Shown here one piece after another: positions 1,528-32,000 of a stretch of DNA of 32,000 bases (position 1 is its first letter; every line of letters starts with the position of its first letter). Source of the DNA: Candidatus Nanohalobium constans (GTDB taxonomy: Archaea; Nanohalarchaeota; Nanosalinia; Nanosalinales; Nanosalinaceae); contig NZ_CP040089.1 of the NCBI RefSeq assembly GCF_009617975.1, positions 570,001-602,000 of the forward strand. The letters run 5' to 3'. The notes under the pieces were generated by a model. That model was not told the DNA's origin. It was given only the letters and a program-made list of their open reading frames with translations, and made no database searches. The translations under genes were made by a program, and so were the position numbers.

Positions 1528-1643
1528 GTCAGGCAACGTCCTGATTGTCCCGCCGAAAGGCAGTACCGATCAGATCGATGGAAGACTTTACTACCGTGTT
1601 CGGAATGGGTACGGGTGTTGCCCTTCCTCTTTGGTCGCCTGTA
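1528..1643 (-). rRNA. 5S ribosomal RNA (stand-alone; ends approximate to a few nt)
   Basis: The reverse complement reads AGGCGACCAAAGAGGAAGGGCAACACCCGTACCCATTCCGAACACGGTAGTAAAGTCTTCC...GGTACTGCCTTTCGGCGGGACAATCAGGACGTTGCCT. The CCCGUACCCAUYCCGAACACGG core matches haloarchaeal 5S as I remember it. Helix I pairs AGGCGAC (1634-1640) with GTTGCCT (1531-1537), and a GAAA/UUUC-capped helix is present. Confidence 0.88.
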
Positions 1644-25357: not shown

Positions 25358-25420
25358 CCTAATGGGATTCAAGACAAATCATAGAAATACATAGTGACCA
25401 CAGGAAAAATTTTGGTAAAG

Positions 25421-25494
25421 TCCCGACTCCAGGATTTGAACCTGGGACAATCCGCTCTACAGGCGGACGCTCTGCCAGACTGAGCTAAGTCGGG
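25421..25494 (-). tRNA. tRNA-Tyr (anticodon GUA)
   Basis: The reverse complement folds as a cloverleaf: CCCGACT/AGTCGGG acceptor, GCTC/GAGC D stem, TCCGC-CTGTAGA-GCGGA anticodon arm, 5-nt variable loop, CCAGG-TTCAAAT-CCTGG T arm. C1-G72 pair (archaeal/eukaryal Tyr identity). No encoded CCA. Confidence 0.93.
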
Positions 25495-25534
25495 TTTGTT
25501 GTCTTAGCTTCATTCAAGAAGCACTTGGCTTCGC

Positions 25535-25550
25535 ACTGAGCTAAGTTGGG
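25535..25550 (-). repeat. Partial copy of the tRNA-Tyr 5' end (16 nt, 1 mismatch)
   Basis: ACTGAGCTAAGTTGGG versus ACTGAGCTAAGTCGGG at 25479-25494. Confidence 0.85.
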
Positions 25551-25599
25551 TGCGTATATGCCCGAGTTAGACTCATTGAGAAAACCGCCAGGTTTTCGT

Positions 25600-25614
25600 C
25601 TGAGCTTAGTCGGG
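25600..25614 (-). repeat. Partial copy of the tRNA-Tyr 5' end (15 nt, 1 mismatch)
   Basis: CTGAGCTTAGTCGGG versus CTGAGCTAAGTCGGG at 25480-25494. Confidence 0.85.
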
Positions 25615-25657
25615 TGTTGTAAGAATTGGTTTACTGGTTAAAGTTTTTAAGGTGTGT

Positions 25658-31224: not shown

Positions 31225-31584
31225 ATGGCATTACTAGACAATCTTATAGTTTTTATCGTCGGAATAATAATAGGAGGCTTGGGAATACATTTTGGAGCAA
31301 TGTTCACGTTAGGCAGAGCCGACTTCTCCAAAGCAGTTAAAACCGCATTAATCGGTGCCGTAGTATGGAGCATAGTCGGTTTCTTCCTAGGAGGAATACC
31401 ATTCCTTGGACCTTTAATCACATTTATAGCATGGCTAGGAGTGATAAAAATAAGCTACGAAGGCGGCTGGATAAACGCAGCAGCAATCGCACTCATAGCC
31501 TGGATCTCAGTACTTATAATCCTCTACCTGCTTGCAGCCATAGGAATCGGAGGCTTCGAAGCAATAGGAGTACCAGGAGTTTAG
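31225..31584 (+). CDS. Small G/I-rich polytopic membrane protein
   Basis: 119-aa ATG ORF with 4 hydrophobic helices. Followed by the hairpin GGGAA-CAT-TTCCC and CTCTTTTTATCTT. Confidence 0.6.
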   Translation: MALLDNLIVFIVGIIIGGLGIHFGAMFTLGRADFSKAVKTALIGAVVWSIVGFFLGGIPFLGPLITFIAWLGVIKISYEGGWINAAAIALIAWISVLIILYLLAAIGIGGFEAIGVPGV

Positions 31585-31717
31585 GGAACATTTCCCCTCT
31601 TTTTATCTTGTTAATTAATTTGGTCTGCAAATACCCCGGAGAAAATACCTTCGCTAAAGACGAATTGTTCCGTTACCGGTGCAAAAAAATTTATCACATT
31701 TTGTAAGAAAAATTATT

Positions 31718-31790
31718 TGGCAGGACCCGGATTTGAACCGGGGTCTGGCCGTCCCAAACGGCCAATGATAGTCCACTACACCATCCCGCC
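31718..31790 (-). tRNA. tRNA-Pro (anticodon UGG)
   Basis: The reverse complement is GGCGGGATGGTGTAGTGGACTATCATTGGCCGTTTGGGACGGCCAGACCCCGGTTCAAATCCGGGTCCTGCCA. Acceptor GGCGGGA/TCCTGCC (one G-U), anticodon arm GGCCG-TTTGGGA-CGGCC, T arm CCCGG-TTCAAAT-CCGGG. No encoded CCA. Confidence 0.92.
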
Positions 31791-31818
31791 AAACTTCTGA
31801 AAGTTTGATCATCAAGGT

Positions 31819-31896
31819 GCATGGTTCGGCGAACCATGCTTTGCGTGCGTTGAAGACCATTTGGTCTTCTGCTCTAGAAAACCTTTCGGTTTTCGT
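31819..31896 (-). other. Three consecutive perfect hairpins in the tRNA-Pro upstream spacer
   Basis: GCATGGTTC-GGC-GAACCATGC (31819-31839), GAAGACC-ATTT-GGTCTTC (31852-31869), GAAAACC-TTTC-GGTTTTC (31877-31894). Confidence 0.7.
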
Positions 31897-31926
31897 AGGA
31901 TCTGAGCGTAACCAGTCCGTTCAGTC

Positions 31927-31939
31927 ACACCATCCCGCC
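31927..31939 (-). repeat. Exact 13-nt copy of the tRNA-Pro 5' end
   Basis: ACACCATCCCGCC is identical to 31778-31790. Confidence 0.85.
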
Positions 31940-32000
31940 TTCCTGTATTATCTGGTTTGGTACACTAGTTTTAAAATAGGATTTCCGTCTTCGCGTAGGG

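Follow-up and report, generated by a model that had tools for sequence, protein, structure and literature searches.

How does a tRNA gene come to carry an exact copy of its own first nucleotides well upstream of its 5' end, with a promoter that stands before the copy and not before the gene? The question is raised by the intact tRNA-Pro(UGG) gene in a 32,000-nt stretch, here called the window, of the genome of Candidatus Nanohalobium constans (Nanohaloarchaeota, DPANN; 973,463 bp, 39 tRNA genes); the genome paper is silent on this layout. A 13-nt direct repeat (ACACCATCCCGCC on the plus strand) occurs without mismatch at positions 31778-31790, the start of the gene, and at 31927-31939, with a spacing of 149 nt, as described in an earlier note on this DNA. 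The same note placed a TATA-like box about 30 nt upstream of the distal copy and no comparable A/T box in the 35 nt preceding the complete tRNA, and both observations are borne out: the box, TATTTTAAAA, lies 29 nt from the copy, and in the 35 nt such a box is absent. We consider it probable, at roughly 60%, that a small dispersed, non-coding and hairpin-rich element of 136 bp inserted into the 5' part of tRNA-Pro with a duplication derived from the target, that the old promoter still drives the tRNA, and that the resulting leader is removed by RNase P.

An origin of the 13-nt repeat by chance is excluded. The expectation for a given 13-mer in 300 nt is ~5e-6 (300/4^13), 26 control tRNAs from 75 unrelated loci all lack a 5' copy of at least 11 nt within 200 nt, and the fold of the precursor is much stronger than that of shuffled sequences (z = -5.3; a second fold figure gave z = -4.5). 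On these grounds the claim of the earlier note that the layout is not accidental stands.

That the spacer between the two copies was gained or lost as a unit is shown by relatives, represented here by short metagenomic contigs (L-numbered loci). In L082, in which the neighbouring protein is 72% identical, an identical promoter (CTATTTTAAAACTAGT) is followed by 26 nt and then by an uninterrupted, near-identical tRNA-Pro. Because this promoter leads directly into the tRNA, the distal copy in the window stands where the gene ancestrally began, and what distinguishes the two sequences is an insertion/deletion made up of 136 nt and one copy of the 13-mer. A second, independent pair consists of L271, L272 and L274, which are empty, versus L256, which is filled; the upstream sequence AAAGACTTCAACACGACATCAA is common to all of them. 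In the three empty loci, TTAAAAGACTTCAACACGACATCAA runs directly into tRNA-Pro, whereas in L256 the shared upstream sequence is followed by a 19-21-nt copy of the tRNA start and by hairpin modules, with the tRNA itself presumably lying past the end of the contig.

Read in tRNA sense, the inserted sequence in the window consists of an 8-nt linker, hairpin hp3, two GAAA-type hairpins, the box GCACGCAA, hairpin hp2, the sequence TGATGATC and hairpin hp1, the last two forming a terminal module (Table 1). The earlier note had counted three perfect hairpins, one of them (31877-31894) with a GAAA loop in tRNA sense. All three are indeed perfect and the loop is as described, but the total is five, hp1 and hp3 being the additions. 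Homologues of the spacer, as judged from alignment, exist elsewhere: the 136 nt are collinear along their full length with positions 2612-2747 of L208, and the two share, in order, a hairpin with the loop GTTACGCT, a GAAA(A)CC hairpin, a third hairpin that differs between them, a (G)CACGCAA-like box, an CATGGTTC/GAACCATG hairpin, TGATGAT and a terminal hairpin. L211 and L269 match the 3' part of the spacer as well. The loop and boxes recur in shorter relatives, of which one immediately precedes tRNA-Ala (L269), another separates a tRNA-Leu-like 3' end from its copy (L211) and a third is flanked by two 3' copies of tRNA-Arg (L225). The loop GTTACGCT is kept in the window and in L208, L211, L225 and L269 while its stems vary.

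Table 1. Features of the tRNA-Pro and tRNA-Tyr loci in the window (sequences of hairpins given as stem-loop-stem)
Feature	Position	Strand	Evidence or occurrence
tRNA-Pro(UGG), intact	31718-31790	-	Rfam tRNA, 52.6 bits; ARAGORN; CCA not encoded
Terminal module: TGATGATC plus hp1 (AAACTT-TCAG-AAGTTT, 31791-31806)	31791-31814	-	hp1 ends on the base preceding tRNA +1
TGATGATC of the terminal module	31807-31814	-	just before hp1 in tRNA sense
hp2, perfect hairpin GCATGGTTC-GCC-GAACCATGC	31819-31839	-	stem identical in L208 and L211; elsewhere differing yet complementary stems
Conserved box GCACGCAA	31841-31848	-	also in L211 and L269; GGCGCAA in L208
Perfect hairpin GAAGACC-AAAT-GGTCTTC	31852-31869	-	hairpin with other sequence at the corresponding place in L208
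Perfect GAAA-stem hairpin GAAAACC-GAAA-GGTTTTC	31877-31894	-	stem recurs in the tRNA-Tyr leader (25580-25597) and in L083, L002, L228, L239 and L269
hp3, stem GGACTG/CAGATCC, conserved loop GTTACGCT (31905-31912)	31898-31918	-	loop recurs on differing stems in L208, L211, L225 and L269
Inserted non-coding element, long form, 136 nt	31791-31926	-	collinear end to end with L208 2612-2747; missing from L082
Orphan distal copy of tRNA-Pro nt 1-13, GGCGGGATGGTGT	31927-31939	-	exact repeat; same promoter-relative position as tRNA +1 in L082
TATA-like promoter box TATTTTAAAA of tRNA-Pro	31969-31978	-	29 nt between box and distal copy
tRNA-Tyr(GUA), second gene with the layout	25420-25494	-	ARAGORN, Rfam
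tRNA-Tyr unit 2: 17-nt copy 25535-25551 (94%), hairpin GAAGC-CAAGT-GCTTC, inverted partial copy GAAGCTAAG	25495-25551	-	missing in L083 and L002
tRNA-Tyr unit 1: 17-nt copy 25599-25615 (88%), hairpin GAAAACC-TGGC-GGTTTTC (25580-25597), inverted copy TGAGTCTAACTCGGG	25552-25615	-	orthologous, more diverged unit in L083
TATA-like box TTAAAAAC of tRNA-Tyr	25643-25650	-	28 nt upstream of the outermost copy; same box before tRNA-Tyr in L083 and L002

The limits of tRNA-Pro given by ARAGORN include one extra base per side compared to those of Rfam. A scan of the whole window with Rfam at the gathering threshold missed this gene, which was an artefact of the speed filter; a 500-nt scan found it at the score listed in Table 1, against a gathering score of 29.

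To see how widely the terminal module occurs, public metagenomes were scanned with the pattern GATGNNNRAACTTTCRGAAGTTY, which yielded 67 loci. Thirty-three of them are of the nanohaloarchaeal type, with a variable complementary hairpin, N-UGAUGAU-N and a terminal hairpin; the others are unrelated coding sequences. In 29 of the 33 loci the terminal hairpin lies 0-2 nt from tRNA-derived sequence, be it the end of a tRNA, a fragment of one or the border of an intron. The module stands before tRNA +1 in 8 loci, inverted after tRNA nt 73 or after a 3' copy in 12, inverted after a distal tRNA-Pro copy in 4, before a 3' fragment starting in the T-arm in 2, and as the first bases of the canonical 37/38 intron of tRNA-Thr(GGU) in 3. 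It is found away from tRNAs in 4 of the 33 loci. At L231 1776-1798 it directly abuts the ATG of an RFC-small-subunit-like gene, and the module at L260 2662-2684 and the element at L208 2612-2747 lie immediately 3' of stop codons. Copies comprise the 33 metagenomic loci, three sites in L002 and one in the window, the within-genome count resting on L002. Within 200 nt of tRNAs, perfect GAAA...TTTC-stem hairpins reach 17 times their density in the rest of these loci, a figure that is inflated because the loci were partly chosen by motif. The short form of the element ends in TTTCTGWAAG (TTTCTGAAAG) ... CTTTCAGAAG, an inverted and imperfect match of ~10 nt, and the long form in the window has no clear inverted repeat at its left end.

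In the tRNA-Thr(GGU) genes (L219 1790-1932, L227 8232-8406 and L259 185-327) the canonical 37/38 intron starts with the inverted terminal module and ends with AGAAGUUUU, and an intron-terminal helix is formed between one half of the terminal hairpin and AGAAGUUU, which lies close to the 3' end of the intron. Canonical introns in tRNA-Pro of L002, tRNA-Arg of L225, tRNA-Trp of L001 and tRNA-Ala of L269 carry GAGAAG...CTTCGA-type hairpins. On sequence comparison, the element is best described as a member of a dispersed family located at tRNA-gene ends and in tRNA introns of Nanohaloarchaeota, which by the same comparison recurs at many tRNAs, at both ends and in both orientations. The earlier note had proposed a common mechanism, either leader biology or an element targeting tRNA 5' ends. 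The element side of this proposal is backed by the empty sites in relatives, by the modules beside many tRNAs and by the identity of the distal TATA box with the promoter of the orthologous tRNA. The modules are not confined to 5' ends: they also occur at 3' ends, inside a canonical intron and at a small number of sites without a tRNA.

The duplications follow common rules across loci. Besides tRNA-Pro, the genes for tRNA-Tyr, -Leu, -Ser, -Arg, -Glu and -Ala bear duplications of 9-24 nt of their 5' or 3' end, with related GAAA-stem hairpins between the copies. The outer boundary of the duplicated segment is the tRNA end, at times extended by 1-4 nt, and the inner boundary varies between nt 9 and 21 for 5' copies and between nt 50 and 59 for 3' copies. 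In tRNA-Pro the break point varies with the form of the element: it lies after nt 13 in the window, at the border of D-stem and D-loop, after nt 14 in L002, and after nt 19-21 in L228, L256 and L258. In L002, a distant relative whose neighbouring protein is 42% identical, an exact copy of 14 nt (18 nt including GGAA) lies 95 nt upstream of tRNA-Pro(CGG), and the gap between copy and TATA box is 29 nt as in the window; the leader contains the hairpin GAAAAACC-GTCA-GGTTTTC, the terminal module in inverted orientation and a segment complementary to the copy. The intact tRNA is always on the inner side, while orphan copies lie outward and range from exact to heavily decayed, forming an age series from exact (tRNA-Pro in the window, L002, L228) through 94% and 88% (tRNA-Tyr in the window) to 5 mismatches in 19 (L083). 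Where units are nested (L218 compared to L241; L239), the older copies are farther out. One 3' unit is common to tRNA-Ser(TGA) in L210 and tRNA-Arg(GCG) in L218, and in both cases the copied 3' end is that of the respective tRNA; the source of the duplication is therefore the target, and the element did not bring it along. Many units hold an inverted copy of part of the duplicated segment, which in 3' units is GATTTGA-like and complementary to the universal T-loop. The tRNA-Leu isoacceptors TAG, TAA and CAA (L204 ~40-90, L229, L242) have a common leader segment, CCAACCCCGGTAAT, that is complementary to the 5' end of tRNA-Leu; it follows a 14-15-nt copy of the tRNA-Leu end in L229 and L242, and in L204 a TATA box stands in the place of the copy.

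Within the window, tRNA-Tyr(GUA) shares the layout of tRNA-Pro, as the earlier note had recognized, except that its 17-nt start occurs in three copies rather than two (25479-25495, 25535-25551 and 25599-25615, with spacings of 56 and 64 nt). In L083, only the outer unit is present and is further decayed. The tRNA-Tyr gene of L002 has no 5' copy; an exact 23-nt copy of its 3' end lies 56 nt downstream, the two being separated by a GAAAAC hairpin and an anti-T-loop segment, and a third, degenerate 3' copy lies farther out with the terminal module before it. The solitary 5S rRNA gene (1528-1642, minus strand) has a plain promoter, with a TTTATAAG box ~27 nt upstream, and neither repeat nor hairpin leader; the layout is therefore not general to stable-RNA genes here. 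As a separate observation, the tRNA at L083 4874-4949 (ena:ERZ23499071 scaffold_7097) differs from tRNA-Tyr of the window by a single base in the tRNA body and has the anticodon GGA (Ser) instead of GTA, for which a sequencing error, a polymorphism and an anticodon shift are all conceivable causes.

If an element inserted at tRNA-Pro, the event would have duplicated nt 1-13 from the target itself, and by this duplication a whole tRNA gene would have been regenerated against the terminal hairpin of the element, the old promoter and an orphan 13-nt fragment being displaced 149 bp upstream. Transcription would then start a few nucleotides upstream of the distal copy, as suggested by the old TATA box, the precursor would carry a structured leader of an estimated ~155 nt, and RNase P would cut at +1 of the proximal copy. 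RNase P protein subunits have been reported in Nanohaloarchaeota (PMC4919917). Because the old promoter and RNase P would still yield the tRNA, the insertion would be near-neutral and the orphan copies would be free to decay over time. Such an insertion would be survivable only because the duplication restores the full tRNA, and selection for a restored tRNA would therefore explain why a duplication accompanies every surviving case. As to how the target is opened, we would guess at two cuts, one guided by structure or pairing at the base of the acceptor stem and another in the D- or T-loop region.

Several observations weigh against an insertion of this kind. The duplications, at 9-24 nt, are not of fixed length, whereas most DDE transposases produce fixed-length target duplications, and their boundary is nearly always at the mature tRNA end, which is not predicted by simple staggered DNA cleavage. 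No transposase, integrase or reverse transcriptase gene lies next to any element, and no second module that could provide paired terminal inverted repeats was found, each locus having a single one. The conserved loops and co-varying stems suggest from sequence that some function is served by the element itself or by a protein that binds it. The polarity of events is a further point: empty sites could have arisen by precise deletion between the direct repeats, and for the trio L256, L271 and L258 parsimony is ambiguous. Distal copies match their own tRNA in lineages that differ in tRNA-Pro at nt 7 (A7, T7, G7) and nts 11-13, and this tracking may reflect recent independent insertions, gene conversion or selection. 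Finally, coverage comprised the 32 kb of N. constans and short metagenomic contigs.

A bolder version of the insertion model, which we put forward tentatively, is that Nanohaloarchaeota carry undescribed miniature elements, marked by GAAA-stem hairpins and by a terminal module of UGAUGAU and AAACUUUCAGAAGUUU, that would home to exact tRNA ends or loops by structure recognition or base pairing, duplicate the terminus, and supply leaders, trailers and bona fide introns. The anti-T-loop segment GAUUUGA of the 3' units is an example of what pairing-guided homing could use, and under this version the elements may be joined to RNA ends instead of being transposed in the classical way. If it is true, these loci would be a live system in which tRNA genes gain introns, orphan fragments and perhaps split genes. 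Joining at RNA ends by a reverse transcriptase, which would account for the coincidence of junctions with tRNA termini, was considered and rejected: 3' junctions lack CCA, and some duplications extend 1-4 nt beyond +1. The diversity-generating retroelement (DGR) reverse transcriptase of N. constans has been reported to be absent in other nanohaloarchaea (PMC7443923), which also weighs against such joining.

The conserved parts of the element could themselves be what is maintained by selection. The leader would then be a functional RNA module, either a small structured RNA or a processing or chaperone signal, that is co-transcribed with the tRNA and released or used at the boundary between hp1 and the tRNA, with the distal copy kept identical by its pairing with sequences of the tRNA or the leader; an origin by insertion is compatible with this. 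The conservation of the loop GTTACGCT and of the boxes GCACGCAA and UGAUGAU fits such a function, as do stems that differ yet stay complementary, the very low folding energy given above, the direct adjacency of hp1 to functional RNA ends (including the ATG in L231), the distal copies that follow lineage-specific changes in tRNA-Pro, and the terminal helix that the module forms in a genuine tRNA-Thr intron. The stems do not discriminate: 218 of 225 pairs are Watson-Crick, with few G-U pairs, though stem sequences vary by locus, and this near-perfection is compatible with RNA-level selection and with DNA-level palindromes or young copies alike. We regard a functional leader as unlikely, though as an explanation to be taken seriously, in view of modules that occur in both orientations relative to the tRNA and so give complementary, not identical, RNAs, of close relatives that lack the element, of many orphan copies that are decaying, and of the lack of an Rfam family match. 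Rfam 15 at the gathering score returned only tRNA and 5S rRNA for the window; at E <= 10 positions 31500-32000 gave nothing relevant, ribozymes and C/D sRNAs included, and ten element-bearing loci gave only tRNA. Resemblances to a hammerhead core (CUGAUGA ... GAAA), a K-turn or a C/D arrangement around UGAUGA and CUGA were rejected by eye, the geometry not being consistent. The relation of the distal copy to RNA processing could also be that of a true 5' exon, the spacer and proximal copy being removed by the archaeal splicing endonuclease as a non-canonical bulge-helix-bulge (BHB) intron or as part of a split or alternative exon. Non-canonical archaeal introns are known from D- and T-arms, and it is in the regions of these arms that the break points fall; a canonical intron also contains modules, the canonical introns of these organisms imply an endonuclease, and in minimum-free-energy folds the distal copy is base-paired to the 3' acceptor strand. 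This last pairing arises because the two copies are equivalent partners. The BHB motif that the earlier note had proposed between the distal copy and the spacer-tRNA junction did not form in any of the 13 splice registers of tRNA-Pro, in which no more than 3 of the 4 central-helix pairs form and no flanking helix is longer than 1 bp; in tRNA-Tyr the central helix has 4 pairs solely via the palindrome AGCU, with flanks of at most 2 bp. This failure is expected because, when the sites lie in the repeat, both strands of the central helix are the same non-palindromic sequence. As the tRNA-Pro gene is also contiguous and high-scoring in ARAGORN and Rfam, and the outer tRNA-Tyr copies carry A8 and A4 changes that would damage the tRNA, we find a disrupted gene hardly credible.

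Integrase-mediated integration of a virus or plasmid equipped with a copy of tRNA nt 1-13, followed by deletion of nearly the whole element, would leave the repeats as attachment-site scars. Attachment sites typically have a repeat that is bounded by the tRNA end. The known outcome of archaeal integration at tRNA 5' and 3' ends, a reconstituted tRNA and a partial direct repeat (PMC3293823), resembles what is seen here. Against it, inserts of ~40-140 bp without genes recur at more than 15 loci, and long-form-type elements are found at Pro, Ala, Arg and Leu-like tRNAs as well as at a non-tRNA site. Moreover, the one spacer shared by L210 and L218 lies at different tRNAs, and because each has its own duplicated segment, an attachment copy borne by the element cannot explain it. 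No integrase was found near tRNA-Pro in the window, and the 136 nt hold no gene. A scan of IMG/VR viral contigs with GAAAACCNNNNGGTTTTC gave generic hairpins only, and one with the specific module gave a single chance hit in a helicase coding sequence (plasmid collections and complete genomes were not searched); a viral origin was rejected on this basis, and we judge the attachment-site explanation quite improbable. A larger transposon with paired terminal inverted repeats was likewise rejected on account of the single module per locus. The units might instead be by-products of error-prone break repair or template switching, through snap-back synthesis or templated insertion, at heavily transcribed tRNA DNA that forms cloverleafs, in which case no mobile element would be involved. 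Many units with direct and inverted copies of tRNA ends, the nearly always perfect stems, the variable duplication lengths and the break points in D-arm, T-arm or loop regions would all fit such repair. A long ordered set of modules that recurs across genomes and contexts, including a non-tRNA site, would not, nor are conserved loops and a constant terminal hairpin expected from local repair, and this explanation appears very improbable to us.

Among the neighbouring genes, one encodes an oxidoreductase that matches a protein of Candidatus Nanohalobium constans at 100% identity. The open reading frame (ORF) at 31225-31584 (plus strand, 119 aa; UniRef 'phage holin family protein') has homologues that are 58-59% identical in haloarchaea (Halobellus, Natrialba) and in nanohaloarchaea, which may reflect gene sharing between symbiont and host lineages. 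On the closest relative contig (L081 586-2975, neighbouring protein 83% identical), a DNA methylase gene and three small ORFs lie between the PEBP and holin-like genes; they are absent in the window.

The origin of interrupted archaeal tRNA genes, with odd introns, orphan fragments and split genes, is a long-standing question, and to our knowledge kilobase-sized integrative elements are the sole concrete model to date for such interruptions. Here, an orphan tRNA end beside a regenerated gene would have arisen repeatedly by way of gene-free hairpin elements of 40-140 bp, at both ends of many tRNAs. In the searchable literature and in Rfam we found no description of hairpin insertions at tRNA ends. 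The loci offer, in a cultivated organism, a tractable system for studying how such insertions happen, how they burden or regulate tRNA maturation, and whether they provide the raw material of tRNA introns. For annotation, the promoters of these tRNA genes would lie 60-170 nt farther upstream than expected, and a search for attachment sites or split tRNAs can be misled by orphan fragments.

The closest parallel to the arrangement is integration of the SSV1/pNOB8 type, in which an insert is likewise flanked by a repeat of a tRNA terminus, with an intact tRNA on one side and an orphan fragment on the other, at 5' and 3' termini and with polymorphism among close relatives. In Caldiarchaeum subterraneum, the tRNA-Thr gene has a 5' fragment of itself 1.8 kb upstream (Sugahara et al. 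2012, PMC3293823). In contrast, the inserts described here are, at 40-140 bp, 10-40x smaller, free of genes and without integrase, and consist of modular conserved hairpins; the repeat is target-derived, and different tRNAs can carry one and the same insert. In being small, non-coding, multi-copy and hairpin-forming, in occurring in either orientation in transcribed non-coding DNA and in presumably being mobilised in trans, the elements resemble miniature inverted-repeat transposable elements (MITE) and elements of the repetitive extragenic palindromic (REP) and palindrome-associated transposable element (PATE) types. They differ in their long and variable duplications, which are anchored at the tRNA end instead of being short and fixed, in their strict placement against tRNA ends, fragments and an intron border, and in a long form with no clear inverted repeat at its left end.

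Casposons and Cas1-mediated integration provide a further comparison, as these insertions occur next to the 3' ends of tRNA genes, with target duplications of 14-30 bp (14-15 bp for casposons) and terminal inverted repeats. Placement at a tRNA end and target duplication are common to both, and the three-copy tRNA-Tyr array resembles the tandem of repeats and inserts produced in CRISPR-spacer acquisition. Here, however, the duplication varies from 9 to 24 nt, the long form lacks clear terminal inverted repeats, the inserts share modules, and 5' ends are also used; the gene-free 136-nt spacer holds no cas1, and the gene was not searched for elsewhere in the genome. Archaeal BHB tRNA introns, intron transposition in Thermoproteales and the split tRNA genes of Nanoarchaeum are the remaining systems for comparison. 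As in the Thermoproteales, similar sequences occur across tRNA genes at the D-arm, anticodon loop and T-arm and contain segments complementary to the adjacent exon, and the module is present in the real 37/38 intron of tRNA-Thr(GGU). Unlike in BHB introns and split tRNAs, the tRNA gene in the window is contiguous, and its interruption is resolved by duplication, not by splicing.

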